From a virus: a stretch of 39,192 nucleotides of DNA. Numbering within the stretch: the first letter of the stretch is position 1; the number at the start of each line of letters is the position of its first letter. The position numbers and the translations under genes are program-made. Shown here in pieces: positions 3,523-39,192 of this stretch. Location: IMG/VR virus record IMGVR_UViG_3300026488_000006, positions 1-39,192 of that record. One strand, 5' to 3'. The notes beneath the pieces are model-generated. The model did no database searches and had not been told where the DNA came from. It saw only the letters and a program-made list of their open reading frames with translations.

Positions 3523-3708
3523 CGGGCATTAGTTAGTGCACTTCTCCTTAAATATCTTGCGAAAGCAGTTCCGTTTAACGCCGGCGGGCTTGTTAATTAG
3601 GCAAACACTTCTGTTTAACACTAGGGCAAGAGTTAGGCGCCACCGTTGCTGTGGGTCAGCCAGCCTCGACGGGCGCCGAAAATCCGGGGTAGCCAGCCAC
3701 TCTACATT

Positions 3709-4233
3709 GTCTTCACGTCATCGCAACGGGGCCCGGCGTTGCGGTGATGAAGACACATAGGTTTAAACTTGTCCGTTTTGTTACCCACTTCTGTTCCTAT
3801 GATGTGCTTATGTGGACGCCGAAAAAGGTAGGAGCGGGCTTTTTCGGTGTACAAAAGTGTTCTGAAGACAAAATCGCTTCTCACGAAGACACGTAATAAG
3901 GTGATGAAGACACAAAGGTTGACCTTATCACGGAAACAAGAGAGGGCTTTTTTGCCCATTTTAAAGGTAGGAGAATGCCGTTTCAATGTACAAAAGTGTT
4001 CTGAAGACAAAACCACTTCTCACGAAGACACGTAATTTCGGGCCCTGCTCCACTGACAGTAGTACTGCATCACCATAGGCCAGCATTACCAACGGCGGTG
4101 GCTCAACGCTTTGCTGGAAAAAATGTGCACATCTGGGGAATCAAGGTCAACCCCGTGTCTTCATCACTTTGTTACGTGTCTTCGTGAGAAGCGATTTTGT
4201 CTTCATCACCCCCATTACGTGTCTTCGTGAGAA
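3709..4233. repeat. Iteron array / putative replication origin or master regulatory region
   Basis: Two 49-bp direct repeats (3849-3897, 3988-4036); GTGATGAAGACAC at 3744-3756 and 3901-3913; inverted copies at 4155-4167, 4172-4209 and 4214-4233. At least 11 GAAGACA cores in about 525 bp, switching orientation around a 120-bp centre. Confidence 0.6.
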
Positions 4234-4335
4234 CCCAAAACAAGGGTATTTTTGGCTTATATGGTTAAACATGTGTGGTTTTACGGCGACTGTCTAAAAA
4301 CCGTAAAAAAGAAGTTAAGTCCCGGCGCTGGATGT

Positions 4336-9549: not shown

Positions 9550-10803
9550 TCACTTGGAGCTTAGTGCCTTCGCCACGCTGACAGCCACGACGGCCCCAAC
9601 GCCGAGCATGATGAAGTTCGCCATCTTGTCCAGGGCTGAGCCACCGCCACCACCGCCTGAGCCACCGCTCGGCTTGGTCGCGTTGGCCACGTCGGTCACG
9701 TGCTTGAGGAGCTCCTGACAGGCGGGGTTGTTCGGGTCGCTACACGCGCTCGTCACGAAGTTGATGTACTGGCTGAAGGCCTCGGCGCGCTTCTTGTCGG
9801 CCTCGGCGTAGATTGCGTCCACCCTGACGACCTTGACCGCGAAGGCGATGGCTATGACTATCACCGCCAGCGCCACGAGGACGTAAACGACCGGCATGAG
9901 CTCCGGCCCGAGCGAGCCCGCCTTGACCACGGGCACGAGCACGGTGTAGGTGCCGTCATGGTTCTTGACGATGTACGGCCCACGGAGCTTCTGCCCGGCG
10001 TAGGTGTACTCGTAGGTCGTGTCAACAACGAACCCCAGGGGCGCCACCATCTTGGCCGTCTCCTGCACGGCCCTGGCCAGCACGTCCTCCATCTTGGGGC
10101 ACTTCTTGATGATGCCCAGCACTTTCTGGCACTCGTCCTCGACCGTCACGGCCAGCACGGCGCGGTTGGAGTTCAGCAATACGCCCGGCGGGGTCATTAG
10201 CGACGCCTGGTAAGCGACCCAGTAGTAGCCACGCGGGATTGTGACCCCGAACTTCTGCTCGAACTCCTGTATTGTCTCCTCGGGCACGCTCGCGTTGGGG
10301 AGCCTCAGCCTGGACAGCATGACGCCGTTCTGCCAGTCGGTCACCTGGTCCTTGAGCTCGCGCTCCGGAGGCTGGTTTGGCCCGGCGTACTTGAAGCCGA
10401 TGACCGTCGAGTAGTCCACGAAGAGCACTGGCACGGCGTCAATGACGTTCACGCAACCCACGTCCGGCACCGGCAACACGGGGCCATGAGCGTTGGGGCT
10501 CTTCTGACCGCACACCTCGTGGCTGAAGTACTGGTACATTGCGAGCCACAGGTTGGGGCTCGTCCAGAGCGCCACGTCCCCATTCTCGCCGTGGATGGTT
10601 TTCTTTTTCCAGCTCGGCTTGGCCTCGGGAATCTCGCCGGTCTCAACGTCGAACGGTACGTATGTGGCCCGGTAAGTGCCCTGCCACGCTCCCCGTGCGA
10701 GGAGCACCCAGAGCGCGTAGGTCAGCTTGTCCATCGGCTTTGATGGGTCAACCGGCGTCAGCCCGACCGCCTCGACGTAGCTCATCCTGTCCTTGTAGCT
10801 CAT
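9550..10803 (-). CDS. Putative membrane-anchored virion/envelope protein (417 aa)
   Basis: RBS GAGGTGA before ATG; internal hydrophobic helix; Gly-rich linker (SGGSGGGGGGS) followed by a C-terminal transmembrane anchor. Confidence 0.6.
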   Translation of the reverse strand: MSYKDRMSYVEAVGLTPVDPSKPMDKLTYALWVLLARGAWQGTYRATYVPFDVETGEIPEAKPSWKKKTIHGENGDVALWTSPNLWLAMYQYFSHEVCGQKSPNAHGPVLPVPDVGCVNVIDAVPVLFVDYSTVIGFKYAGPNQPPERELKDQVTDWQNGVMLSRLRLPNASVPEETIQEFEQKFGVTIPRGYYWVAYQASLMTPPGVLLNSNRAVLAVTVEDECQKVLGIIKKCPKMEDVLARAVQETAKMVAPLGFVVDTTYEYTYAGQKLRGPYIVKNHDGTYTVLVPVVKAGSLGPELMPVVYVLVALAVIVIAIAFAVKVVRVDAIYAEADKKRAEAFSQYINFVTSACSDPNNPACQELLKHVTDVANATKPSGGSGGGGGGSALDKMANFIMLGVGAVVAVSVAKALSSK

Positions 10804-10818
10804 CTCTCGTCACCTCGG

Positions 10819-11682
10819 TTATTCCTTGTGGGTGGCCTTCGCGAGGGCGTAGGCCGTCACCAACCCGGCTCCAAGGAGCGCGAGGCCGGCTAAACTATTT
10901 TTTTCCTCCGTCGTGTTGACCCCGGGGCCGGGCCCCGGCCCGGGCCCCTCTGCCGGCTTTATCTCGACAGTTATTGTATTCTGGTAGGCGAGCCGGTCAT
11001 CGACATAAACTTTCACGACTGCCTGTATCGTCCCCTTTGCGTTCTTTGGTATTTGGATGGGTAGGTTAAAGCGGGCTCCATAGGCGCCCTTTGTCGTCAC
11101 CGGGCCGGACTTCACGGTTCCAAACGGCGTGTCCATCTCGGCGAGGAACTTGTGGGTGTTGTAGTCATTCAGCACGCGGGCGTTCACAGTGACGGTTAGG
11201 GTTCCACCCGCCTTGACGGAGCTCGGCGCATTTATGCTCACGTCAACCTTTGGTAGCTGGTACTCGCCTGCCTTGACCTTTGCGCTGGCTATTAGTGTCC
11301 CGCTCGGCACGTCGGCAGGGCTGGCGAAAGCAACGATGGTAACGCCTTCCTCCGGCATCGTTATGTAGCCAACGGTCGCGATTTGGCACTTGTTTAGCTT
11401 AACGGCGCCGAGCTTTGTCCCCTTCTTGTTGCTCGCCGTGATGTAAGCATCCGGCCCTGTCCCCTTAGCGTACCAAACCTCAATGGTCACCGGGAAACTC
11501 TTCCAAATGGCCCAGTCCGGCACGCCGACGATAACCGGCACCTTCTGCCCCGGAGGTGCCGAGGCTGGCACATTGAGTATCTCTTCGGGGCACGGCTGGG
11601 GGGTCGGTTCGGGGCCGGCCTGGCTAACGTTCACCCCAAAGGACTTGGTATCAACAACGTGCCACTCCGCCATCTCCATCAC
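10819..11682 (-). CDS. Putative surface protein (about 285 aa) with C-terminal TM anchor
   Basis: N-terminus MAEWHVVDTKSFGVNV is paralogous to the N-terminus of 12185..12496; PGPGPGPG linker then hydrophobic anchor. True start is probably the third ATG (about 11673). Confidence 0.6.
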   Translation of the reverse strand: MMEMAEWHVVDTKSFGVNVSQAGPEPTPQPCPEEILNVPASAPPGQKVPVIVGVPDWAIWKSFPVTIEVWYAKGTGPDAYITASNKKGTKLGAVKLNKCQIATVGYITMPEEGVTIVAFASPADVPSGTLIASAKVKAGEYQLPKVDVSINAPSSVKAGGTLTVTVNARVLNDYNTHKFLAEMDTPFGTVKSGPVTTKGAYGARFNLPIQIPKNAKGTIQAVVKVYVDDRLAYQNTITVEIKPAEGPGPGPGPGVNTTEEKNSLAGLALLGAGLVTAYALAKATHKE

Positions 11683-13525: not shown

Positions 13526-13996
13526 TCACGGGAATGTTATTGTGACGTAGATGTCGAGCAAGATGGTGTTGTCCTTCGTTATGGCGGGGTCAATGTTCAC
13601 GTGGTTGATGAGCGTGCCGGTGGTGTAGTCGTTGCCGTCCGTGTGCTCATAGATGCCCGCCTCGGTATAGGTGTAGCCGTTCGCCTCCTCGGGCATGTAG
13701 CGGACGTAGTACTGCACCGTGTTGTTGCTGACCGTCAGCTGTCCGGTCTTGGCAGTCGAGGCGACAGGCTGGAAGAGGCCGGTGTCGCTCTCGCTGGGCG
13801 TCCCGGAGCCGGTACCGAGGACCAGCATCCAGTTTGAGGAGCCCTGGCTGTTGCCCCACGCCTGCGCCAGTAACTTCTTGAACTCCGTCGTTAGGACGTT
13901 CTTGCGCTCCACCTCGTCCAACACGGCGCCCGTGCGGGCGTCCCTTATGACGAACTTCCAAACGGCCTTGGCTGTGGCGGTTTCCCCAACCTTCAC
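13526..13996 (-). CDS. Putative structural protein (156 aa), paralog A of an adjacent pair
   Basis: RBS AAGGAGGTGAT before GTG; shares motifs with 14009..14713 (VLGTGSGTP.SD.TGLF, RYMPEE.NG.T.TE.G.YE, KD.T..D.YV.I). Confidence 0.6.
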   Translation of the reverse strand: MKVGETATAKAVWKFVIRDARTGAVLDEVERKNVLTTEFKKLLAQAWGNSQGSSNWMLVLGTGSGTPSESDTGLFQPVASTAKTGQLTVSNNTVQYYVRYMPEEANGYTYTEAGIYEHTDGNDYTTGTLINHVNIDPAITKDNTILLDIYVTITFP

Positions 13997-14008: not shown

Positions 14009-14713
14009 TTAAACTTGGTTCACGTAAATGCTTACGTACACGTCAATCATCTTCGTGTCGTCCTTCTCAATCGGGGACGGCAACATAGCGTGCTCGAAGA
14101 GCTGGCCGTTCTGGTACTCCTGTGGCGGGATGTAGTGGTGCTCATAGACCGGGTTCCCGCCGACGGTCGGCGTGTAGCTGTACCAGTGGAACGGGATGTT
14201 CTCATAGACGCCGACCTCCGTAATGGTTTGACCATTGAGCTCCTCGGGCATGTAGCGGGCCCAGTAGCGCCAGCCGTTGCTCAGCTGTTCGAGCTTTGCG
14301 TCGGCGCCCCACGGCAGGGGTGTGATGACGAGCCTCTCGCCGACCTTCTCGTTCTGGTTGTTGTAGATGTCCTCAACGGAAATGCTGAGGCCGTCTTGAC
14401 CCTCGCCACGGGCCGATGCGTTGATGGGGTTGAACAGTCCGGTGTCGCTCACGTCCGGCGTCCCGGAGCCGGTGCCGAGGACGATTGCCCACTGCGGGCG
14501 CCTGTAAAGGGAGATGTCGTTCGGGCACTGATACGTCTCGTCGGGCTTCTTGTACTCCGCGACGAACTTGCCGGTGAGCCAAGCCTGCTGGAGTAGGGCG
14601 ATGCCGGCCGAGGTGATAACGTTGTCCGTCTCCACCTTCCAGCGCTCGCCGGTCTCAACGTCCGTGACCACGACCATCACGTGCCCCTTGATAATGGCGC
14701 CGTTAAGTTTCAT
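14009..14713 (-). CDS. Putative structural protein (234 aa), paralog B of an adjacent pair
   Basis: RBS GGGGGTGGTTGA before ATG; conserved blocks shared with 13526..13996. Confidence 0.6.
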   Translation of the reverse strand: MKLNGAIIKGHVMVVVTDVETGERWKVETDNVITSAGIALLQQAWLTGKFVAEYKKPDETYQCPNDISLYRRPQWAIVLGTGSGTPDVSDTGLFNPINASARGEGQDGLSISVEDIYNNQNEKVGERLVITPLPWGADAKLEQLSNGWRYWARYMPEELNGQTITEVGVYENIPFHWYSYTPTVGGNPVYEHHYIPPQEYQNGQLFEHAMLPSPIEKDDTKMIDVYVSIYVNQV

Positions 14714-22721: not shown

Positions 22722-25700
22722 TCACCTCAGCTCCTTCCTCAACTCCGCAACGAACTTTTCATATATCTCGTTGAACGGCCAGGGGAATTCTGGCTCGTAG
22801 CCAAGACTCTTCAGCACCGTCGCGGGCACCACTGCGACCAAGTAGAACATCGTGGGCTCGCAAAGCCAGCCCTTCTCGTTCTCTCCGAGCTCGTCCTCAA
22901 ACTTGACCTGCACCGTGAAGTGGTTGTAGTCCGCCTTGTGGCAAATCTTTCTGTGCTTTCTGAGGAAAGCCAGCACGGCAGTACTGTAAGGCTCGCCCGC
23001 CTTAGCATTCCTCTTCAGCCATGCACGTATGAGGCTCGCAACCTTCCTATATACCTCGTGGATGCCACCCTCGACCAGAGCACCGCCCGCCTGCTCCACA
23101 GCGTATAGCGCCATCGCTTCGGCGAACGTCAGCGGGGCCCTCTTCTTCCTGTCTATGTACTCGCCGATGATGTTCTCCCCGAGCCACTTCTTGAGAAAGT
23201 CGGCATACATGCTGGCGTCCGAGTGAGTCTTGGCCTTCTCCTTAAGGTAGCGCTCAACGCCATACCACAGCATAGCTGAGAGCTCGCGCGGGTCTTCGAG
23301 GGCCCGACTGAGCCACTCCGGCACCTCGCCGAGGTACTGGTAGATGTTCTTTGGCTTCGATAGTTCTTTCCTCCGCTCGACTATCTCAGTTGCTGAAACC
23401 ACCCCACCCGAGCGCTTCTTCATCTCGACCGGGAGCTCTCGGCGCCCGACCTTTTGGTTGTACACACTTGTGGCCAACTTCGAGGCTTCGATGACGGCGC
23501 TGTCGAACGGGAGCTCGCCCTTGGCCACCATATCCGCGAGAACCCATAGGTCGCGCTCGATGTCGGGGAGCACGAAGTCGAGGTCAATGTTGCGCTTGAG
23601 TAGTCTGCGGTCGAGGCTCTTGAGTAGGCGCTCATAGGTGGCTCTAACTTCCTCTGGCACTTCCGGTGCTCTTCTTGGCTCAATCTCTTCGCTTATGGCC
23701 TCTTCTTCCGGCGTCAACTCCTTCACCTCCCTTTCGGCCCTGCGCTCGGGTTTTGCACCCAGCATTTTCTTCGCTTCCTCGACCTTCGCCTTCGGCAACG
23801 CCTTCCGCGCCTCCTTCATCACGATGGCCATCGCCCTCGGCTGGGTGAGCCTGCCTTCATAGACCTCGCGGGCGAGGCGCTCGATGAGCTCAAGCGGGGG
23901 CTCCGGCGGTCTGACATCGTGGAGCTCGAAGTAGCCTTCCCAGGTGTCGGTCAGCTTGCGCCTGATGAAGCGGAGGTCTTCCTCCTCCTGCGTCGCCATC
24001 TCGGCGACTTCTTCGAGCGGGAGCTCCGTCGCCTCGCCGTGCACCTTGACCGGGACCTCAACCTCCTCAAGCGGGGCCCCCTCTTTCTCCCCGGCAATAG
24101 TTCTCACCATGGACTCCTCCGGGATTTCGGCCTTCTGCTTCTCCTCCAGCTCGGCCTCAAGCTCCGGTAGCTCTTCCGGTGCCGGCGGTAAGTATTCCTT
24201 CGCCAGCTCGCGGACGTGGCGTGCCCATTCTTCCGGCGTCATCCCGAGGCGCCTGGCGAACTCTTCATCATTGGCCAACTGCTCGACCACTTCCTCGGCG
24301 CTGGTGGCACCGTACTGCTCCGGGTGCTCAAGGGCGTCGCGGATGTAGTCGTCAACCTGCCTCAGCAACTCGGCCCGCTCTTCCGTCTCAGTTGGCTTGA
24401 GCTTCCACCTCATAACCTCGGCTCCAGCCCTCGCGAGGAGCGCCTCCTCCTTGTTGGTCGGGAGCGTCCGGGCGTAGTGGACGAGCATATCATAGACCGT
24501 ACGGAACGGGTAGTAGTCGAGCTTCTGCCAGTCATAGTCTTCGACCTCGCTCGGGCTGATTGCGCCGAGGAGGACGAGCGTCTTGGCCACGCGCTCCGGC
24601 GTCGGCTTTAGGCCGAGGTAAAAGCCGAGCTGGGCGCGCTCTATTGAGGGCTTCGGCTTCTCCTCGCGGGCGGGCTTAGGCTCTGGCTGTGCGGACTTGG
24701 CAGTCCCCGGGACTTCTCTCGGCTTTTCCACCTTCTTCTTGCATTTTTCCACCTGTGGTGCCAGGAAGCGCTCAAAGTACGTAGTCACCAGCTCCTGTAA
24801 GTAGTTGGCTTTGACAAAGTTTAGGTGGCCGGGCTTGAGCTCGCGACGGACGACGTTGTAATACCCGCGGGCGTTGTCTGAGATGTGGCACACGCCGTTG
24901 GGGTAGTGTTTCTCGGGGTACAAAAACTCCTCACGGACGCCGAACTCGCGCTCAAGGTGGCGGGCGAAAACGTCCCTCGGAGCTGTCTTGGCGAACTCCT
25001 CGACTTGCTTCGTGAGCTCCGGCGTCACGTAGCGGACGTTGTAGTTTGGCTCATAAGACTCCGATTGTTTTGCTAATGCCTCAAGCTCAGCCTTTACTCT
25101 GTTGAGCGTCTCCCGCACGTCTTCCATCTGCTCCTTGAGCTCCTCGTCGCTCACGCGCGGGTTGCCTATCATCCTCCCAAGCACGCGCACCTTCACCTTT
25201 AGCGAGTTCTTAATGGTCGTGCTTAGCTTCCAAGGGAGCTTTTCCGGCAGGTTCTTGCGGAGCTCTTCGTATTCCTTGATTAGCTTCCTGGCCTCTTCCT
25301 CAAGCGCAAGGCGCTTTTCCGCCTCGGTGCCGGCCTTTGACTTAACGCCCAGCCCGCTCGTCAGGTAGCCGACGTATTTGCAGAAGTCCGGCATATTGGC
25401 GTCCTTCCACGTGAAGTTGGAGAGGTACTGGGCGAGGTAGAGTATCTCGCGGTCGAGCGGGTTGGCGCCGTGCCACTTGGGGATTTTTCCACGCTTTATG
25501 TCGGCACAGGCCATATCGAGCGGTATGAGCACGGCTTTGACCGGCTCGACCTTCCCGGCGTTGTAAAGCTTCCACGCCATAGCCGTGAGCGCCATGAGCT
25601 CCCTAAGCTTCTTCAGGCAGTCGTAGGGGCTCCTGCTGTCCCTACACAACTTATCGTAGTCGGTCCTCAATAGGATGAGCTTTCCGCCCGACAGGCACCA

Positions 25701-27761
25701 CCCAAGCTTTTTGCGCTCTATGAACTCACATATCTCGTCCGCCGAGACCTCCGCACCCATCCTGGCCAGCCTGCTCACCAGCCCCGGTAGCGTGTCCCAG
25801 ATTGAGAAGACCGTTGGGCTCTTGTTTAGCTTCTCGTCAATTATCTTCATTAATTCCTCGCGCCAGTCCACCTTTTTCGGACTCAGCCTCTCCAGAACTT
25901 CCTTTGTGAGCTCACGGGCGAGTGAGTGGACGCAGGGAACGTACTTACGCGGGTCTTTTCCACGACCAACCTCACAAACCCCGTCGAGCTCGATGGTCTC
26001 GCCGTTCACCCTTGCGCTCAACGTGATGTAGGCGCCGTGTAACTGCCCCAACCTCATCGTCAGCTCGAAGTCGCCCACCGCCGTCTTGACGAGCCACGTT
26101 TTTTCAGCCTGCGTGTCGCTGTTCCATTCCTTGACTGCCTTCCAGTCCAACGGGGGCTTCCCGGTCTCGTGGAGCACTACCTCGTACACCCCGTCGTAAA
26201 GCGCCTTCCGAGCATTCTTCCATACCTCGTTCCAGGGCTCCTTGAGCTCCGGCGGGTTAAGGCGGACTTCGCCGAACTTCTTTGAGAGGCCGGGAACGTT
26301 CATAGTGCGCTCGATGATTTCGAGGGCGTCGGCGATGGCGTTATCAGTCAGCTTCCTTACCCACGCCTTCCGCTTCGGCGACCAGCGGAACCCGTGCGCC
26401 TTGAGCTCGCGCCTAACCTCTGCCGGCGGGGCGCTCGTAAAGACCACCCAGAGCCTATCGTCGGCGTGGTTAGCAATGATTTTCCAGCCGTCACCCTTGG
26501 CCAACACCTGAACACCGCTTGTCGTGCCCTTGGCCTGCGCTTCTTTTTTCTCTAACTCCTCAATACGGGCCTTGAGGCGCTTTATTTTTTCACCAACACG
26601 GCGGAGCTCAAAGTCGGGGAAACCAATCCTGCCCAGCTCGTCCGGCTCCGGCCAAAAGAAGAAGTGGCCGGCCTCTGCAACTTTAAATGCGCCAATCTCT
26701 TTAAGCTTCCTCTCCTTCTCTTCGGGCGTGAGCTTCTTTGAGCGGATGATTTTGTTCGCTTCCTTCATTATCTCACGGCGCTTTTCGAGTATCGCCAACT
26801 CTTCCTTTAACCTCTCCAGTTCGCCAACGGCCTTTTTGTTCACGGCGCCCTGCTTCAGAGCTTCCTGCTCCTTCTTCAGCTCCTCTGCCAATTTATCAAG
26901 CTTCTTAAAGGCGTTCTTGATGAACTCGTCGAGCGCTGACAGCTTCCTATGTTCAGTCCGCCAGAGCTTTTCGAGCCGGTCTTGGCTCGGCATCCTCGCC
27001 GGCCCAACCACGTGGGCGCTCGGAATTCTCGCCCTCGTCGTTAAGTAGTCCTCATAAAGCTCAATGTAGCGCTTCGAAAAGTTTTGTATCAACCTCTTCG
27101 CCCGTTCGGGGCCGATGAGCGGGCAGAGCTTCTGCACCTTCTCAGCGTAGCGGTTCAGAGTGCGGAGGTAAGAGAGCTGGTCATACTCCGCGTCTTTCTC
27201 CGGGGTCCACGAATTAATAGAATACGCGCCCTTCGCCCGCTCAAACGGGAACGGTGTAACTTTGACGGGGATTATATCAGCCTTCCCGCCATAGTAACAC
27301 TCGATTTCAAGCGTCCAATTGTCCTGAATAAACGGGCCCCGTTCCCGCTTCGCCCTAACAACTGTCAAGATTTTATCAACGGGGCGCTCAAGCTCTTCTA
27401 CAAGAGAGTTCAATTGCGGGAGCTCGGATTTAAGCCTCTCAATAGCACCCTTGAGCTTCTCAACGTCTTCTGGTGTGAATTTATAGCGCCCAATGTCGGC
27501 CTCTCTCATTAAGTCGCGGTAGCGGTCAATGAGCTTATTCACGGCCACCCAGTCCCTCCACAGCCTCAAGAACTCCTCAACGCGCTCTTTCATCCCGGGC
27601 GGGAACTCCTCGCCGGCCTGTCTAATCTCATCTATATGTTCCTTGAGCCATAGGGCGCGGACGTAGTTCTTCATATCCTTTGTTCCCGAGAACCACCCGT
27701 TTTCGGCCCGGATGTCGTTAAACTCCCAGATGAGCTTTTGGACTTCATCGTACAGGTTCAC
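22722..27761 (-). CDS. Giant multidomain protein (1,679 aa) of unknown function
   Basis: Uninterrupted 5 kb ORF; GTG start at 27761 after RBS GGGGGTGGTGGC; coiled-coil-like and highly acidic/basic segments; no Walker A, no polymerase or primase motif that I could confirm. Confidence 0.7.
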   Translation of the reverse strand: MNLYDEVQKLIWEFNDIRAENGWFSGTKDMKNYVRALWLKEHIDEIRQAGEEFPPGMKERVEEFLRLWRDWVAVNKLIDRYRDLMREADIGRYKFTPEDVEKLKGAIERLKSELPQLNSLVEELERPVDKILTVVRAKRERGPFIQDNWTLEIECYYGGKADIIPVKVTPFPFERAKGAYSINSWTPEKDAEYDQLSYLRTLNRYAEKVQKLCPLIGPERAKRLIQNFSKRYIELYEDYLTTRARIPSAHVVGPARMPSQDRLEKLWRTEHRKLSALDEFIKNAFKKLDKLAEELKKEQEALKQGAVNKKAVGELERLKEELAILEKRREIMKEANKIIRSKKLTPEEKERKLKEIGAFKVAEAGHFFFWPEPDELGRIGFPDFELRRVGEKIKRLKARIEELEKKEAQAKGTTSGVQVLAKGDGWKIIANHADDRLWVVFTSAPPAEVRRELKAHGFRWSPKRKAWVRKLTDNAIADALEIIERTMNVPGLSKKFGEVRLNPPELKEPWNEVWKNARKALYDGVYEVVLHETGKPPLDWKAVKEWNSDTQAEKTWLVKTAVGDFELTMRLGQLHGAYITLSARVNGETIELDGVCEVGRGKDPRKYVPCVHSLARELTKEVLERLSPKKVDWREELMKIIDEKLNKSPTVFSIWDTLPGLVSRLARMGAEVSADEICEFIERKKLGWCLSGGKLILLRTDYDKLCRDSRSPYDCLKKLRELMALTAMAWKLYNAGKVEPVKAVLIPLDMACADIKRGKIPKWHGANPLDREILYLAQYLSNFTWKDANMPDFCKYVGYLTSGLGVKSKAGTEAEKRLALEEEARKLIKEYEELRKNLPEKLPWKLSTTIKNSLKVKVRVLGRMIGNPRVSDEELKEQMEDVRETLNRVKAELEALAKQSESYEPNYNVRYVTPELTKQVEEFAKTAPRDVFARHLEREFGVREEFLYPEKHYPNGVCHISDNARGYYNVVRRELKPGHLNFVKANYLQELVTTYFERFLAPQVEKCKKKVEKPREVPGTAKSAQPEPKPAREEKPKPSIERAQLGFYLGLKPTPERVAKTLVLLGAISPSEVEDYDWQKLDYYPFRTVYDMLVHYARTLPTNKEEALLARAGAEVMRWKLKPTETEERAELLRQVDDYIRDALEHPEQYGATSAEEVVEQLANDEEFARRLGMTPEEWARHVRELAKEYLPPAPEELPELEAELEEKQKAEIPEESMVRTIAGEKEGAPLEEVEVPVKVHGEATELPLEEVAEMATQEEEDLRFIRRKLTDTWEGYFELHDVRPPEPPLELIERLAREVYEGRLTQPRAMAIVMKEARKALPKAKVEEAKKMLGAKPERRAEREVKELTPEEEAISEEIEPRRAPEVPEEVRATYERLLKSLDRRLLKRNIDLDFVLPDIERDLWVLADMVAKGELPFDSAVIEASKLATSVYNQKVGRRELPVEMKKRSGGVVSATEIVERRKELSKPKNIYQYLGEVPEWLSRALEDPRELSAMLWYGVERYLKEKAKTHSDASMYADFLKKWLGENIIGEYIDRKKRAPLTFAEAMALYAVEQAGGALVEGGIHEVYRKVASLIRAWLKRNAKAGEPYSTAVLAFLRKHRKICHKADYNHFTVQVKFEDELGENEKGWLCEPTMFYLVAVVPATVLKSLGYEPEFPWPFNEIYEKFVAELRKELR

Positions 27762-29687: not shown

Positions 29688-29688
29688 A

Positions 29689-29747
29689 CCTTCTTTTTTT
29701 CGCCCGCTTTATAACCCGGTTATAATTTCTCACAACCGGGTTTTGCC
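29689..29747 (+). terminator. Terminator-like element: oligo-T plus palindrome TTATAACCCGGTTATAA and AACCGGGTTTTGCC
   Basis: T9 run immediately after the operon's last stop; about 80 percent identical to 30326-30382. Confidence 0.45.
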
Positions 29748-29969: not shown

Positions 29970-30323
29970 ATGGAGAAGGTGAGAATCATACCGCACAGGT
30001 TTGAGGACAAGGAAGAGTACATCAACGCCCTCGTCGGGACCTGGAAGCGCAACTGGGAAATCTTCAAGAAGGAGCACCCGCGCGTCGCTAAGCGCTTTGA
30101 GGAGGCAGTCGAGAAGTACGGCGGTATGGATACTATGCTTAGGAAGTTCGCAGAAGACATAGCTTTTGACAAGCGGAGGACGAGGGTTCAGGTTCCCCTC
30201 ACATGCAGAAGATACTTATACAATGACTACGGTATGAGCATCAAGTTCTACGACGACGGCGACATCGTGTATGCGAGGGGCTCAATCAGCTCAAGCGTCC
30301 GCGACATCCTGGGTGTTTGCTGA
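29970..30323 (+). CDS. Hypothetical protein (about 117 aa)
   Basis: Track ORF 29952..30323; ATG at 29970 after RBS GAGGTGG. Confidence 0.55.
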   Translation: MEKVRIIPHRFEDKEEYINALVGTWKRNWEIFKKEHPRVAKRFEEAVEKYGGMDTMLRKFAEDIAFDKRRTRVQVPLTCRRYLYNDYGMSIKFYDDGDIVYARGSISSSVRDILGVC

Positions 30324-30325
30324 CC

Positions 30326-30382
30326 CTTCTTTTTTCGCCCGCCTTATAACTCGGTTATAGCTTTTCTTAACTCGGTTTTGCC
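30326..30382 (+). terminator. Terminator-like element, second copy: oligo-T plus palindrome TTATAACTCGGTTATAG and AACTCGGTTTTGCC
   Basis: Immediately after the stop of 29970..30323; homologous to 29689-29747. Confidence 0.45.
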
Positions 30383-35791: not shown

Positions 35792-35956
35792 TCACCCCCT
35801 CTCTCCGCTCTGCTCGCCGGGCGTGAAAAGAACGAAAGGCCGAAAGTCGGGCGCCGGGAAGGTGATTACTGCCCCGCAGTGCGGGCAGTGAACCGGGCGG
35901 TGGATGTCCTCGACCTCGAAGGGCTGTCCGCAGTAAGGACAACGGACGCGCATCAT
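35792..35956 (-). CDS. Zinc-ribbon protein (about 54 aa)
   Basis: Track ORF 35792..36001; ATG at 35956 after RBS GGAGGGGGT; two CxxC pairs (CPYCG ... CPHCG). Confidence 0.5.
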   Translation of the reverse strand: MMRVRCPYCGQPFEVEDIHRPVHCPHCGAVITFPAPDFRPFVLFTPGEQSGERG

Positions 35957-36249
35957 TTTGCCGACCCCCTCCACCTCATCATCCTCCGTAGCTTTCTCCA
36001 AACAGGGATTGTTTCTCTACTCATATAGTTTCTTTTAGCGAGCCACTCTTTGAACTTCTCGTCACACTCCTCGTCTTCATCAAGGAAGTCGAGTAGTTGA
36101 AGGACTTCCTTATATCTGCCGTACTTCCGCCACACGGCCCACAAGACTTGAGCTCCGAGCCATACCATGAATGCCACAAGCGCCCACGCAAGCGCCGTTA
36201 GCACGGCGAAGCCGGTGTAGGTCCAGATAGTTTCAATGCTCACGGCCAT
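35953..36249 (-). CDS. Small membrane protein (about 98 aa)
   Basis: Track ORF 35953..36324; ATG at 36249 inside a 19-bp sequence also found at the dpdA-like start; hydrophobic helices. Confidence 0.5.
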   Translation of the reverse strand: MAVSIETIWTYTGFAVLTALAWALVAFMVWLGAQVLWAVWRKYGRYKEVLQLLDFLDEDEECDEKFKEWLAKRNYMSRETIPVWRKLRRMMRWRGSAK

Positions 36250-36320
36250 CACGCTCCTTTTTTCTTTCAGAGTGCACATAGTGGAACCACCATATGTAAT
36301 ACTCCTCCGTGATTCCCATT

Positions 36321-37130
36321 TCACACATTCGAAATCACCTCAGTAAGGCTTTTCTGACGGGAGTTTTGGAACCCATCTAATAACCGAACCCAATGGAGTA
36401 CTCTCTGTCGTATCTGCATCCAGATAGGCTTAGAGTTCTTCACGCGGTCAATACCATACCTATATGCCAAACTGTCCGCCGAGTAAAGAGCTTCTCTCAC
36501 GTCAGGATACCTGAGCACTCCAAACTTTACTCCAAAAGCGTGCAACTTAACCCTCCTTGGTGTCGCTTCTCTTATTGCGAGTATGTATCTCCGTATTTGC
36601 GGTTCTTGCCCGCGCCGGCACATTGTGCCGAGGCCGAGAAGTTCAGTCAGGAGACCATGCTCCTTCATATAATCGAGCATCCAGAGATAGTCGTCAAGCG
36701 CCCACCCCTGCAATACTGCCACAAAGTGCTTCTTAAGTTCAGGATACTGGTCGTCAATTAGATTCTGAATTACAATCTGGTTTTCTATCGTTTTCATCTG
36801 ATTTTCTCGAACCGTGCGACCCCACTTCTTGCGGACTTCCGGTTCGCACGGATAATCCCTATTCGCAAAGAGGACATTCTCAAAGCGTCCAGAATTGAGC
36901 TGACGAAGGACAAACTCAAGGTAGCGCTCGTGTGGGTCCGGGTATTCTTGCATGCGGTAAAAAAAGCTGAAGCCTCCGCTGTCAATGAACAACCAGCTTG
37001 TGTTCCTAGGTGGGGTTCTAACTCTGGAAGCATAGTTAATCATAACATTGAACTTGCGCGGAGCGAGGCTTTCAAATGCCTTTTTTGCTGAACCATCCCC
37101 CACACCAAAAAAGAAACTAAACACGGCCAT
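36321..37130 (-). CDS. TGT-family transglycosylase, DpdA-like (7-deazaguanine DNA transglycosylase candidate)
   Basis: Motif WLFIDSGGFSFF matches the tRNA-guanine transglycosylase active-site motif (E. coli Tgt ILTDSGGFQVF); downstream blocks align loosely with TGT (VAVLQG, LLGLGTM, YSADSL); no CxCxxC...H zinc site. Track ORF 36321..37271 starts at a TTG; ATG at 37130 follows RBS AGGAAGGAGCGTG. Confidence 0.7.
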   Translation of the reverse strand: MAVFSFFFGVGDGSAKKAFESLAPRKFNVMINYASRVRTPPRNTSWLFIDSGGFSFFYRMQEYPDPHERYLEFVLRQLNSGRFENVLFANRDYPCEPEVRKKWGRTVRENQMKTIENQIVIQNLIDDQYPELKKHFVAVLQGWALDDYLWMLDYMKEHGLLTELLGLGTMCRRGQEPQIRRYILAIREATPRRVKLHAFGVKFGVLRYPDVREALYSADSLAYRYGIDRVKNSKPIWMQIRQRVLHWVRLLDGFQNSRQKSLTEVISNV

Positions 37131-37296
37131 CACGCTCCTTCCTAAGTGTTGCAATAAAGCACTCGTCGAAAAACTCACAAGCTTCACAGAGCGAGTCGCC
37201 CTGAAAGTCTCCAAAGCAAGGCGGTAGTTCCTCAGCGCCCTCATTGTCGAATTCGCCCCAAACCTCTCCAAAAACCGTTATGAGAACCTTAGCCAC
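37117..37296 (-). CDS. Small Cys-rich protein (59 aa), possible metal-binding
   Basis: Not in the ORF track. GTG start after RBS GGGGGTGACGGGGC, directly after the upstream stop; C-x11-C-x2-C-x5-C; overlaps the dpdA-like start by 14 nt in another frame. Confidence 0.35.
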   Translation of the reverse strand: MAKVLITVFGEVWGEFDNEGAEELPPCFGDFQGDSLCEACEFFDECFIATLRKERDGRV

Positions 37297-37310
37297 GCCC
37301 CGTCACCCCC

Positions 37311-37547
37311 TTAAACTTCCACCTCGGCCTTTCGGCCGGCGGGCTCGCCGAGGCGGACGACGGCGTAGCCATGCTTTGCAAGGGCCTTAATGATTTTGAG
37401 AGCCTCGGCGTCGTCGCTGAGTACGGCGAGCAAGATGTCCTTGCCGTCCGGCAGGCGCCCGTGGAGCTCGCCACAGCAGTACTCGACGTGATGGAGCTCG
37501 TAAACGCCGTAGGTGTTGTCGAGGCCGTCAATCACGGCGACCCTCAT
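37311..37547 (-). CDS. Hypothetical protein (78 aa) with HHVEYCCGELHG motif
   Basis: ORF tiled in operon next to the dpdA-like gene. Confidence 0.5.
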   Translation of the reverse strand: MRVAVIDGLDNTYGVYELHHVEYCCGELHGRLPDGKDILLAVLSDDAEALKIIKALAKHGYAVVRLGEPAGRKAEVEV

Positions 37548-37577
37548 GCTTCCACCTCCAAAAATTTAAGAAAGGGT

Positions 37578-37880
37578 CTAATCGGCCTCATTCTCTTGGA
37601 AGTATCTTCTCGTGTCATCATCGAAGAGGCTGATATCTTCTTCCTTATAGAAAAACATTGCTAAAGCTCTGGACTTTAGGAGGTTGTTGAGGTCGTCCTT
37701 TCCAAAAACATTCCTTGATACGGCAAAACTTGTCTTATAGTATCCTTTCTTTTTAGATGGTGCGCTCCAGTCACCAACAGGGTCCTCTGCAATTACTACG
37801 TACTTAAAACCGGCCTCCTTGTGCTTCTGGAGGTAGTCTATAACCTCATCAATAGTTGCAATCATTGTCGCCATTCTCAT
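37578..37880 (-). CDS. Hypothetical protein (100 aa), AT-richer gene
   Basis: ORF with noticeably lower GC than the genome average. Confidence 0.5.
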   Translation of the reverse strand: MRMATMIATIDEVIDYLQKHKEAGFKYVVIAEDPVGDWSAPSKKKGYYKTSFAVSRNVFGKDDLNNLLKSRALAMFFYKEEDISLFDDDTRRYFQENEAD

Positions 37881-37891
37881 ACACCCCCGAC

Positions 37892-38395
37892 TTATCCTTC
37901 AACCATTATCCAACGCTCCCGGCGGGCGTACTGCGGGAGCATGACGCGAACCCACCACTCGACGAAGGCCCAAGGCACGTGGTAGCCCTTTCCCGGGACG
38001 TAGAAGTCGCGGGGCTCGTAGCCGTTGCGGTAGCACCACCACTTAAAGTCGTTGCGGAGCGTGTATTCGCCGACGACGTGACGGTAGCGCCTCATCAGCT
38101 CGCTGAGCTTCACGCGCCGGCCCTCGCAGAGCGCATACTCGGTCACGAGGTCAAAGTGCCTATCTGGCTCAGTCGGCGTCCGCTCGTCAACCAGCATCTC
38201 CTCGTAGCGCACCTTTGCCCAGAAGTGGTTCTTGAGCCAGTGCTTTTCGAGGGCGTCAATGTAGTGGTAGGCCGTGTGCACCTGGTAGCCTCTGACGAGC
38301 CACAGGTAGGCAAAGTAGGGGCCGGCCCGGACGAGCCAGCCGTGGCGGAGGGTTAGTCGCTTAAACTTACCCATAGACACCACCCTGCGAGCCAC
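37892..38395 (-). CDS. Trp/Tyr-rich hypothetical protein (about 160 aa)
   Basis: RBS GGAGGTGG upstream; true start probably the ATG of MGKFKRL. Confidence 0.5.
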   Translation of the reverse strand: MARRVVSMGKFKRLTLRHGWLVRAGPYFAYLWLVRGYQVHTAYHYIDALEKHWLKNHFWAKVRYEEMLVDERTPTEPDRHFDLVTEYALCEGRRVKLSELMRRYRHVVGEYTLRNDFKWWCYRNGYEPRDFYVPGKGYHVPWAFVEWWVRVMLPQYARRERWIMVEG

Positions 38396-38472
38396 CTCCT
38401 TCGGTAGAACTTATGTTTAAACTTATTAAAAGCTTTGCGGTTGGGGAATGCAAAGGTAGGATTTTGCAAAAG

Positions 38473-39192
38473 TCAATGCTCGGGGTAAGCCACGACTAAA
38501 AACGGGCCGACGCACCAAGTGTCGAGGAGCGCGAACTCGTAAACCGGCGTGTAGCCGGCCCTCTCGCCGACACGGCGGACTATCTCCTCGGCCTCTTCGA
38601 GGTCGTCGGCCCAGCCCTCGTACTCCTCGCCGGAGACCGTGTTCTTCACCACGATGCGGTAGCCAGCCGGCTTTTGCTTTTTGAACCGGCGCATCTTCTC
38701 CCAGCGCTCCGGCCAGGTCTTCCTCCACTCTGCCTCGCGCTTCTGCCACTCCGAGAGGTCGCCAGTGCGTTTCTCGTTGCGCGGGAGCTGGACGCGCTTT
38801 GAAAGGGCTTTCATCACCATCGCCAGCGCAAACGGGCCGAGCTCCCTGTTGAAAAAGCGGACGCGGACGAAGGCACCGGGGCGCTCAGCAACGAAAAAGT
38901 ACGCGACCTTTGGGTCGTCGGGCAGGGTGGCACCTTCCCTCACGAGCTCGTCCCAGAGCTCGTCGCGACCTGAGCGGAGCTTCCAGCCGGCGAAGTGCCT
39001 CAGCCCAATGCCCAAAAGCGGGCCGAGCCCCTGCCTGTTCATACCCAACAATAGCTTTTCGGCTTCTGCCGGACCGATGTTCCGGGCCTCGACCTCAAGG
39101 CGACCGGTGTTCAGCTCGACGGTAGCAGTCCAACGCCCCACATCGGGCTCAACGTTCACGTCGAGAACCTCAATCTTAAACCGCCTCTTCCT
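38473..39192 (-). CDS. Hypothetical protein (about 241 aa), wraps across the window boundary
   Basis: Track ORF 38473..39159 starts at a GTG; in circular coordinates an in-frame ATG at the position equivalent to 131-133 follows a strong RBS (GGAGGTGATTTA) just after the helicase stop. The first two codons lie outside the window end but are present at 128-133. Confidence 0.55.
   Translation of the reverse strand, partial: RKRRFKIEVLDVNVEPDVGRWTATVELNTGRLEVEARNIGPAEAEKLLLGMNRQGLGPLLGIGLRHFAGWKLRSGRDELWDELVREGATLPDDPKVAYFFVAERPGAFVRVRFFNRELGPFALAMVMKALSKRVQLPRNEKRTGDLSEWQKREAEWRKTWPERWEKMRRFKKQKPAGYRIVVKNTVSGEEYEGWADDLEEAEEIVRRVGERAGYTPVYEFALLDTWCVGPFLVVAYPEH
39066..39192. repeat. Terminal direct repeat, copy 2 (identical to 1-127)
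   Basis: Read directly; implies a unit length of about 39,065 bp. Confidence 0.9.

Follow-up and report, generated by a model that had tools for sequence, protein, structure and literature searches.

Two exact copies of a 19-nucleotide (nt) sequence bound a dpdA-like gene in the virus record IMGVR_UViG_3300026488_000006, which was analysed over its entire length of 39,192 nt (the window). The two copies are likely to be instances of a portable junction motif that combines a stop codon, a Shine-Dalgarno (SD) sequence and a start codon, and that would also serve as a crossover site for the exchange of genes. Its place would be between small accessory genes that are packed closely in viruses, plasmids and integrated elements of Thermococcales type. 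The dpdA-like gene, together with a conserved micro open reading frame (micro-ORF) behind it, was probably acquired from a member of this pool with a lower fraction of guanine and cytosine (GC).

The 19-mer in the window

The sequence CACGGCCATCACGCTCCTT was located at 36241-36259 and 37122-37140, both copies being exact as the initial annotation had reported. No further copy was present in the window, even with 3 or 5 mismatches allowed, and two or more matches (3 mismatches allowed) were obtained in 0 of 100 dinucleotide shuffles. Both copies are bordered by mismatches, giving a repeat of exactly 19 nt, which reads AAGGAGCGTGATGGCCGTG on the minus strand. The two copies open different genes on that strand, as had been proposed: the ATG at 37130-37128 (copy 1) opens the DpdA-like ORF and the ATG at 36249-36247 (copy 2) opens a 98-amino-acid (aa) ORF with a ∼30-residue hydrophobic stretch.

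Part of the 19-mer follows the usual design of strong initiation regions in this element. The pattern GGRG(N)GTGA-N5-6-RTG was present at 13 gene starts of the window against 0.7 expected; 11 of these carry a canonical unbulged SD, and the C-bulged 19-mer is present only at the two low-GC genes. This design accounts for ∼12 of the 19 positions. For the other 7-8 free positions, the probability that any pair in the window would be identical by chance was estimated by us at ∼1e-3 to 1e-2, a value far less extreme than the naive figure but one that still makes chance unlikely. The motif was found at small accessory genes and was absent from the structural and replication genes of the window. No sequence complementary to it was present elsewhere in the window on either strand.

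Recurrence of the motif in other elements

Exact-match scans returned the 19-mer in 40 metagenome contigs and 18 genome contigs. By our count ∼33 + 4 of these were vent-type or archaeal (Thermococci, Thermococcaceae and 'Archaeoglobus' metagenome-assembled genomes, MAGs), and ∼33 of the metagenome contigs came from one sample series. In the vent-type and archaeal contigs, which range in GC from 0.37 to 0.58, the 19-mer was a gene start every time and stood before unrelated proteins. A set of 86 non-redundant motif instances was followed by 59 and preceded by 57 protein clusters, with a median downstream ORF of 75 aa. Near-copies were arrayed at consecutive small genes, up to five per contig (5 in L003, L029, L040 and L055), and all copies within a locus had one orientation. 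Motif-rich contigs had a GC of 0.42-0.50. Positions A1, A2, C7, G14, C15 and C16, which lie outside the SD, were identical across elements of GC 0.37 to 0.58.

The motif was also present in the finished chromosome of the cultured Thermococcus thioreducens (CP015105; locus L075), and in L003 an unrelated 58-aa gene starts with an exact copy of the 19-mer. Three loci retrieved by protein (L003, L066 and L075) held one exact copy and several near-copies in ∼72 kb, against ∼0.01 expected by our calculation.

The 19-mer was matched in high-GC bacteria (Streptomyces and others) as well. These matches were taken as chance or unrelated, the flanks and composition being different. In the Streptomyces loci L010, L013, L018 and L022 the 19-mer lies before a conserved small membrane-protein gene (MAV[IV][LV]AFIF…) with conserved upstream sequence. 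These copies were treated as unrelated, consisting of a common AAGGAG SD with an ATG in a genome of high GC, and exact 19-mer matches alone are thus not diagnostic.

Several of the larger motif contigs (among L035, L041, L046, L053, L058, L011, L032 and L014) carry host-type genes, which include aldehyde ferredoxin oxidoreductase, subtilase, archaeosine tRNA-guanine transglycosylase (TGT) with a PUA domain, and transporters. The same group contains an SSV-type archaeal integrase, PAPS-reductase-like genes and a D12 methylase. Given this gene content, elements integrated into chromosomes harbour cassette arrays as well. Two of the contigs, both binned as Archaeoglobus, had flanks 85-98% identical with each other or with unbinned vent-metagenome contigs, and L011 also with a Thermococcaceae MAG contig; the binning or the host range is therefore uncertain.

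Searching the literature for the core of the motif as a string gave nothing but unrelated primer sequences. A preprint on the Thermococcales virome mentioned neither DpdA nor such a motif, and no description of the motif was found in the searchable literature, the coverage of which is incomplete.

Homology between elements ends at the motif

The 60-nt flanks of every pair of motif instances were compared. Nineteen pairs were alike in the upstream flank only and 19 in the downstream flank only. Both flanks were alike in only 8 pairs, all of which derived from two pairs of duplicate contigs. Flanks were up to 100% identical, and in the alignments homology ended exactly at the edges of the motif.

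Both copies in the window are breakpoints of this kind. At copy 1, the small cysteine-rich gene p59 is ∼90% identical in nucleotide sequence to a gene of L041 up to the motif and the two are unrelated after the GTG; in L041 a motif variant follows the p59-type gene and leads to a different gene. At copy 2, a three-way alignment placed the dpdA 3' end, the micro-ORF and the motif in the window, T. thioreducens (L075) and L014, and past GTGAG the three diverge into three unrelated genes. The same unit of dpdA 3' end, micro-ORF and motif was found in L043 before another gene. One short sequence therefore recurs at the boundaries of unrelated genes, and homology between genomes breaks at it.

Where paired sequences differ inside the motif, the variants segregated with the unshared flank, beginning at position 7 in some pairs and reaching as far as position 15 in others. 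This variable segregation indicates, from a small sample, that the crossover point shifts between pairs, more in line with homology-driven exchange than with site-specific cutting at one place.

Structure of the junction

The full motif is ∼25 nt long, AAGGAGCGTGATGGCCGTG[G/A][C/G]TGAG, and its conservation has an abrupt 5' edge at position 1 and fades past ∼position 25. The stop codon of the upstream ORF begins at position 22 in 36 of 98 instances, giving a protein that ends in ...KERDGR[G/E], and at position 25 in a further 13; in 21 of the 98 it is the TGA at 9-11, in a TGATG overlap. The downstream ORF is at least 40 aa long in 93 of the 98. Among 100 instances selected by anchor, a start codon (GTG or ATG) was present at 17-19 in 84 and an ATG at 11-13 in 73, and most instances that lack the latter retain the start at 17-19.

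In the window, copy 1 covers 37116-37140 on the minus strand, with motif position 1 at 37140 and the exact 19-mer at 37122-37140. It contains the SD-like sequence GGAG-C-GTGAT, the ATG at 37130-37128, a GTG at 37124-37122 and the stop codon TAG of p59 at 37119-37117. The p59 frame reads through the copy and acquires the C-terminus ...KERDGRV*. Copy 2 covers 36235-36259 on the minus strand, with position 1 at 36259 and the exact 19-mer at 36241-36259, and contains the ATG at 36249-36247 and a GTG at 36243-36241. Here the micro-ORF reads through with the tail ...KERDGREH* and stops at 36233-36235.

Two starts were considered for the DpdA-like gene (36321-37124, minus strand), which encodes 267 aa from the GTG at 37124 or 269 aa from the ATG at 37130. 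The public gene call (P0001, 267 aa) begins at the GTG and aligns better with the MRFFFGV start of homologs; an exact lookup of the 269-aa form was without a match because the public call starts at GTG. The annotation of both proteins as beginning Met-Ala-Val is probably wrong, a start at 17-19 being more consistent (84 vs 73 of 100).

Taken together, the motif is predicted to act as a frame-tolerant stop/restart adaptor. An extended SD (AGGAG, bulged C, GUGAU) would be placed 4 nt before the GTG or ATG at 17-19, and the ATG at 11-13 would be an alternative start. The upstream gene would draw its stop from the motif, either as the TGA at 9-11 or, more often, at 22-24 or just after. A stop inside the motif would leave the ...KERDGR[G/E] tail on upstream proteins and would couple the translation of successive genes. 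Against the 16S rRNA 3' end assumed here, the motif can pair as AGGAG / bulged C / GUGAU / CC with a duplex energy of -14.6 kcal/mol, similar to the -12.4 to -15.4 kcal/mol of the ordinary dpdA SDs of relatives. The C7 bulge is retained in 91% of instances. The positions that SD pairing leaves unexplained (A1, A2, C7 and GGCC) mark out one particular cassette pool.

The self-fold of the motif has a minimum free energy of -2.4 kcal/mol and no inverted-repeat or hairpin character. Two other identities were dropped on inspection of the sequence. An operator half-site of the TrmB/TGM (Thermococcales glycolytic motif) type would match at GTGAT, but the palindromic partner is absent, and an archaeal promoter would call for a TATA box or a transcription factor B recognition element, neither of which the motif contains.

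Composition and placement of dpdA

The overall GC of the window is ∼0.58. Values of 0.48-0.49 were obtained over 36001-37000 and of 0.486 over 37501-38000. The dpdA gene has a GC of 0.47 and the small membrane-protein (TM) gene behind copy 2 a GC of 0.50. GC at third codon positions (GC3) is ∼0.54 in dpdA, 0.59 in the TM gene and 0.50 in the upstream gene p100, against a window median of 0.76 (standard deviation 0.11). The AT-rich character assigned to this region in the initial annotation was therefore borne out for GC and GC3, but the region is a patchwork in which low-GC genes are interleaved with high-GC ones (p78, GC3 0.74; p167, GC3 0.83). It is also not the only low-GC stretch of the window, others lying at 3.5-4.5 kb, 15-16 kb and 29.5-30.5 kb.

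In L003, L073 and L007, whose DpdA proteins are 71-80% identical to that of the window, dpdA directly follows a UvrD-like helicase gene. In L004 (DpdA 74% identical) the two are separated by the micro-ORF and a gene of 86 aa. The dpdA genes of all four start with MRFFFGV or MERFFFGV behind an ordinary SD and without the 19-mer. In the window, helicase and dpdA are six small genes apart. Between the window and L003 dpdA is 84% identical in nucleotide sequence and the helicase gene only 67%. This difference, with the changed position, indicates that dpdA has moved.

The only distinct homolog of the TM protein (P0103 in L066, 67% identity) has a start without the motif and a different neighbour, and the homology begins at GTGAGC. 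Relatives that carry the same genes without the repeat, which the initial annotation had named as grounds for abandoning its insertion model, are thus formally on record for dpdA and for the TM gene, and the motif belongs to junctions, not to genes.

Proposed mechanism and alternative explanations

Because the same sequence lies at many junctions, the motif would offer a crossover site between elements. The simplest route of exchange would be homology-driven recombination, or template switching, over 19-25 bp of identity. Entire genes would be swapped precisely and would arrive expression-ready, and dpdA with its micro-ORF would form one unit between the p59-type and membrane-protein cassettes of an accessory array. 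Recombination between the two copies would give the deletion junction ...TTATTGCAACACTTAGG-AAGGAGCGTGATGGCCGTG-AGCATTGAAACTATC... and the circle junction ...CACTCTGAAAGAAAA-AAGGAGCGTGATGGCCGTG-TTTAGTTTCTTTTTT....

Several points weigh against the junction motif as both translational adaptor and crossover site. Its effects on translation and recombination are inferred from sequence. An identity of 19-25 bp is short for classical homologous recombination. Pairing was computed against an assumed 16S rRNA 3' end, ...GAUCACCUCCU, instead of one taken from a host sequence. Duplexes of the canonical SD, which has no bulge, are more stable (-17.6 to -20.7 kcal/mol), and the conservation of the bulged C7 and the GGCC spacer is unaccounted for by SD pairing alone, which hints at an extra recognition factor. 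Since the exact 19-mer served to retrieve most loci, the conservation seen at positions 1-19 is overstated by this selection; evidence free of that bias lies only in the motif edges, the flank comparisons and the protein-retrieved loci. Recombination between copies was not directly observed as deletion variants or mini-circles: among nine window-type contigs read, the six places shown contained no deletion or empty-site variant and all six kept both copies.

The initial annotation had explained the repeat by a cassette whose insertion through recombination duplicated a translation-initiation region; the 19-mers would then be the scar of one event, comparable to a long target-site duplication or an unequal crossover. 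Such an event would account for two exact direct copies around one low-GC gene and for a position of dpdA that differs from relatives. It is nevertheless very unlikely, as dozens of unrelated genes elsewhere are bounded by the same 19-mer. Copy 2 and the micro-ORF upstream of it already stand beside dpdA in T. thioreducens and in L014/L043, and a motif variant already follows p59 in L041. With the motif pre-existing on both partners, no duplication is needed. No recombinase, integrase, transposase or nuclease family was detected in the window (67 proteins scanned), no terminal inverted repeats were present in it, and the repeat, present at both partner junctions in other elements, does not fit the target-site duplication of a transposon. 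The single 19-mer that had been predicted to mark an empty site was not found either: the window-type contigs shown included no empty site, and the TM homolog in L066 is without the motif. What stands of the inserted cassette is that dpdA is compositionally foreign and was placed by recombination; what falls is the duplication of a translation-initiation region.

Independent optimisation could also yield similar starts. If the 19-mer were simply the best initiation region for the host, it would arise repeatedly without any part in recombination and the breaks at gene boundaries would be kept by selection, in keeping with the ∼12 of 19 positions that fit the SD-spacer-start design of 13 window gene starts and with the pairing to the anti-SD. 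An unbulged SD, however, pairs better and serves the resident high-GC genes, and the identity of A1, A2, C7, G14, C15 and C16 across elements of such different GC is left unexplained, as are flanks of up to 100% identity that stop exactly at the motif edges rather than anywhere in intergenic sequence or terminal codons, which convergence does not predict. We consider convergence alone unlikely. Extreme conservation of a short asymmetric sequence, also where SD pairing needs nothing, would be expected of a dedicated site-specific cassette system of integron-like or homing-like type, in which an enzyme encoded by element or host recognises the motif. Single-gene arrays in one orientation and the SSV-type integrase in one larger motif-bearing locus point the same way. 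That integrase, however, is of the ordinary chromosomal-integration type, the window lacks a detectable recombinase, integrase or nuclease, the motif has no inverted repeat or hairpin (-2.4 kcal/mol), and the crossover positions deduced above vary within it, which together make such a system quite unlikely.

Recognition in trans is compatible with the junction motif proposed here. The motif could be an operator for a translational regulator, an RNA-binding protein or small RNA (compare T4 RegA and the mycobacteriophage start-associated sequence, SAS), with recombination as a by-product. Conservation that extends over the start codon and the non-SD positions, the retention of a bulged C7 that weakens SD pairing, and the restriction to small accessory genes would all be explained. 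No candidate regulator, complementary sequence in the window or Rfam hit was found, though, and we regard this as somewhat unlikely. A chimeric assembly at a short repeat is almost certainly not the cause. Most of the evidence does come from metagenomic contigs, many of them short, but with 25 nt or less the motif falls well below the k-mer length of the final assemblies (k141 contigs). The arrangement was seen in nine contigs read, of which the six shown span JGI, ENA and Logan assemblies of six samples, and a copy lies in the finished T. thioreducens chromosome.

A more ambitious version of the junction-motif reading is conceivable, though doubtful. As a translational analogue of integron attC or T4 PeSL (promoter-early stem-loop) sites, the motif might be a cassette-exchange site kept for that purpose by hyperthermophilic archaeal viruses and plasmids, a site which ends the upstream gene, restarts translation and hosts the crossover, possibly with a factor that reads the bulged C and GGCC. 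Small genes, dpdA included, could then be moved as expression-ready units or mini-circles.

The DpdA-like protein and its micro-ORF

The DpdA-like protein is predicted to be a TGT-fold 7-deazaguanine DNA transglycosylase. It matched the curated DpdA family model Pfam PF23859 (74.1 bits against a cut-off of 27, E = 1.2e-20) and PHROG 1279 (E = 1.4e-27). An AlphaFold model (predicted local distance difference test 92.9, predicted template modelling score 0.89) had a TGT-type barrel fold, and Foldseek matched it in the PDB to the TGT 2pot (E = 2.8e-6) and to the DNA preQ0 insertase DpdA 7ui4 (E = 3.6e-6), with TMq of 0.51-0.56. Sequence and profile searches of the PDB were empty and only the fold search gave matches. 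The bacterial dpd-cluster equivalog NCBIfam NF041059 scored 14.9 bits against a cut-off of 200; the protein is a viral/archaeal member of the DpdA family and not the bacterial equivalog. No preQ0 pathway genes were found in the window, and the 7-deazaguanine base would therefore come from the archaeosine pathway of the host.

Homologs at 50-80% identity were found in metagenomes and Thermococcales, those of Palaeococcus ferrophilus and T. thioreducens being 64-65% identical. At the protein level, matches in phage and plasmid collections were to a Methanofastidiosa virus (40%), mycobacteriophages, haloarchaeal plasmids and a plasmid of T. nautili (53%), in which dpdA has neither the motif nor the micro-ORF. 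A 307-aa 'DpdA' in L071 was rejected as a fusion variant, being an alternative gene call that results from one G-to-A difference.

The micro-ORF (36233-36328, minus strand; 31 aa, MCEMGITEEYYIWWFHYVHSERKKERDGREH) is conserved and runs into motif copy 2, where it ends. At its start, the ATG overlaps the stop codon of dpdA (ATGTGTGA) and the SD lies inside the dpdA 3' end, and dpdA and micro-ORF make up an 881-bp unit between the two motif copies. Homologs of 28-33 aa have the core [IV]TEEYYxWW[FW][RH]Y[IV]H and were located in L014 (∼1054-1137), L043 (∼1288-1371), L075 (∼10787-10885), L004 (∼9924-9995) and L074 (2122-2220). The micro-ORF is downstream of dpdA in the window, T. thioreducens and L014/L043, where DpdA is only 37% identical, and precedes it in L004-L006. 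The L074 version is joined in frame to the N-terminus of DpdA (…EEYYDWWFRYEYEQSRKGFRFFFGVGDG). The product is probably a partner protein of DpdA, and the fusion in L074 predicts that the two bind directly. No mention of a micro-ORF linked to dpdA was found in the consulted papers.

Neighbouring genes and the element

The TM, Zn-ribbon and p59 genes and the block of small genes next to them are on the minus strand. The TM gene (35953-36243) encodes 96 aa from the GTG at 36243, or 98 aa from the ATG at 36249, and has one long hydrophobic segment. Its protein formed just two clusters in a collection of 5.8 billion proteins. The Zn-ribbon gene downstream of it (35792-35956) shares an ATGA stop/start overlap with the TM gene and has an ordinary SD in the window, although the homologs in L003 and L057 begin at the junction motif. 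Upstream of copy 1 lies p59 (37117-37296; …PPCFGDFQGDSLCEACEFFDEC…), the own start of which is a canonical-SD look-alike of the motif (AAGGGGGTGACGGGGCGTGGCTAAG). The p59 protein is 88% identical to one in L041 (1726-1848), a Thermococcaceae MAG contig with a GC of 0.44, and p59 is another imported cassette. A block of small genes (p78, p100, p167, a 108-aa call and p228/241; 37311-39159) separates the UvrD-like helicase gene (138-1802, across the circular junction) from dpdA, and its GC3 alternates between high and low (0.74, 0.50, 0.83, 0.80).

An exact 127-nt direct repeat at 1-127 and 39066-39192 indicates a complete circular or terminally redundant genome of ∼39,065 bp, and the helicase-to-dpdA gene block spans this junction. 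The element encodes a UvrD-like helicase, an N6/N4 DNA methyltransferase, a 1,679-aa primase-containing protein, DpdA and weak tail-fibre-like proteins. The element fits those Thermococcales virus genomes that are described as having archaeo-eukaryotic primase (AEP) and UvrD-helicase replication modules (PMC12934983). Near-identical copies of the region were present in the nine contigs read, the six shown representing six samples and three assembly sources. Scans of IMG/VR with DpdA, p167 and the 19-mer returned no relatives, megablast and blastn of the region against phage and plasmid collections gave no nucleotide match, and no Rfam family was found anywhere in the window.

Other features of the window were recorded. 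The 1,679-aa ORF (22722-27761, minus strand) matches a primase PHROG over residues 206-484 (E = 1e-34), the rest being unannotated, and is probably a giant primase-helicase-type replication protein. The low-GC region 3700-4240 (0.48-0.51), between the replication genes and the methyltransferase gene, is dense in 50-74-nt direct repeats and inverted repeats. These include a direct repeat at 3824-3897 / 3963-4036 (88%), an inverted repeat at 3863-3913 / 4155-4205 (96%) and 20-nt perfect arms at 3878, 4017 and 4214; the region is a candidate replication origin or regulatory region. A 60-nt direct repeat of 80% identity at 29688-29747 and 30323-30382, near the strand-switch region, contains TTTATAA-like archaeal TATA-box sequences, and its copies look like duplicated promoter regions. 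The neighbouring genes 13526-13996 and 14009-14713 have segments in common at an offset of 555-660 nt (13642-13711 / 14197-14266, 76%; 13767-13822 / 14427-14482, 84%), which suggests a tandem pair of paralogs, possibly of structural or fibre-like proteins.

Comparison with known systems

It has long been asked whether viral mosaics form by homologous exchange at short conserved linkers or through random illegitimate recombination and later selection. Some species among the Thermococcales hosts are genetically tractable (PMC12713403), and the presence of the motif in elements of this group makes the linker model directly testable. The motif further offers a natural 'plug-and-express' junction for archaeal synthetic operons. 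Shuffling at it would explain how dpdA, an anti-restriction DNA-modification gene, moves between archaeal viruses, and the conserved micro-protein that travels with DpdA, fused to it in one case, is flagged here.

Compared with known DpdA proteins, that of the window matches the Pfam DpdA and PHROG 1279 families, has a TGT-type fold and an invariant DSGGF motif, and is encoded beside replication and DNA-methylation genes. It differs in its length of 267 aa against the 413 residues of bacterial DpdA 7ui4, in falling below the NCBIfam equivalog cut-off, in the lack of preQ0 pathway genes in the element and in the linked conserved micro-ORF.

Integron attC sites resemble the motif in that a recurring site separates promoterless single-gene units arrayed in one orientation, and in that unrelated backbones share cassettes. 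An attC site, however, is an imperfect inverted repeat that forms a single-stranded hairpin and is acted on by the IntI tyrosine recombinase, and neither an inverted-repeat site nor an IntI-type integrase was found here. For lambdoid phages, homologous recombination at short conserved gene-boundary (linker) sequences was proposed to make mosaic genomes, but mosaic boundaries usually show no such linkers (PMC3029335). In the elements studied here, by contrast, one defined sequence lies at dozens of boundaries and near-identical flanks end at it.

The SAS of Cluster K mycobacteriophages is a 13-bp sequence, GGGATAGGAGCCC, located 3-7 bp upstream of the start codon, which lies outside it (PMC3203893). 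Like the motif, it is an asymmetric AGGAG-containing repeat at the starts of many unrelated non-structural genes in one orientation, has conserved positions unable to pair with 16S rRNA, sometimes contains the upstream stop, and is suspected of a translational role that is unproven (PMC3203893). The SAS is confined to one phage cluster and is not shown as a mosaic breakpoint, whereas the motif is 19-25 nt long, includes start and stop codons and lies at exchange points across very different GC. The motif has an SAS-type design; the analogy is one of design only, with no sequence relationship.

In T4-type phages, PeSLs are repeated signals between small non-essential genes in hyperplastic regions. 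Their copies recombine to give single-gene insertion, deletion and replacement, and neighbouring copies can release a one-gene mini-circle (PMC2839356, PMC4122927). The likeness is in a conserved expression signal between small genes with modular shuffling, and the analogous product here would be an 881-bp circle of dpdA and micro-ORF. PeSLs are transcriptional signals (a sigma-70 promoter with a terminator hairpin), longer, and bacterial. The motif has no such promoter and terminator stem-loop; it is an archaeal and, as predicted, translational signal (SD, start and stop) without a hairpin that overlaps both coding sequences, and mini-circles were not observed. By analogy, the T4 PeSLs are the closest known system in behaviour and the Cluster K SAS is the closest in design.

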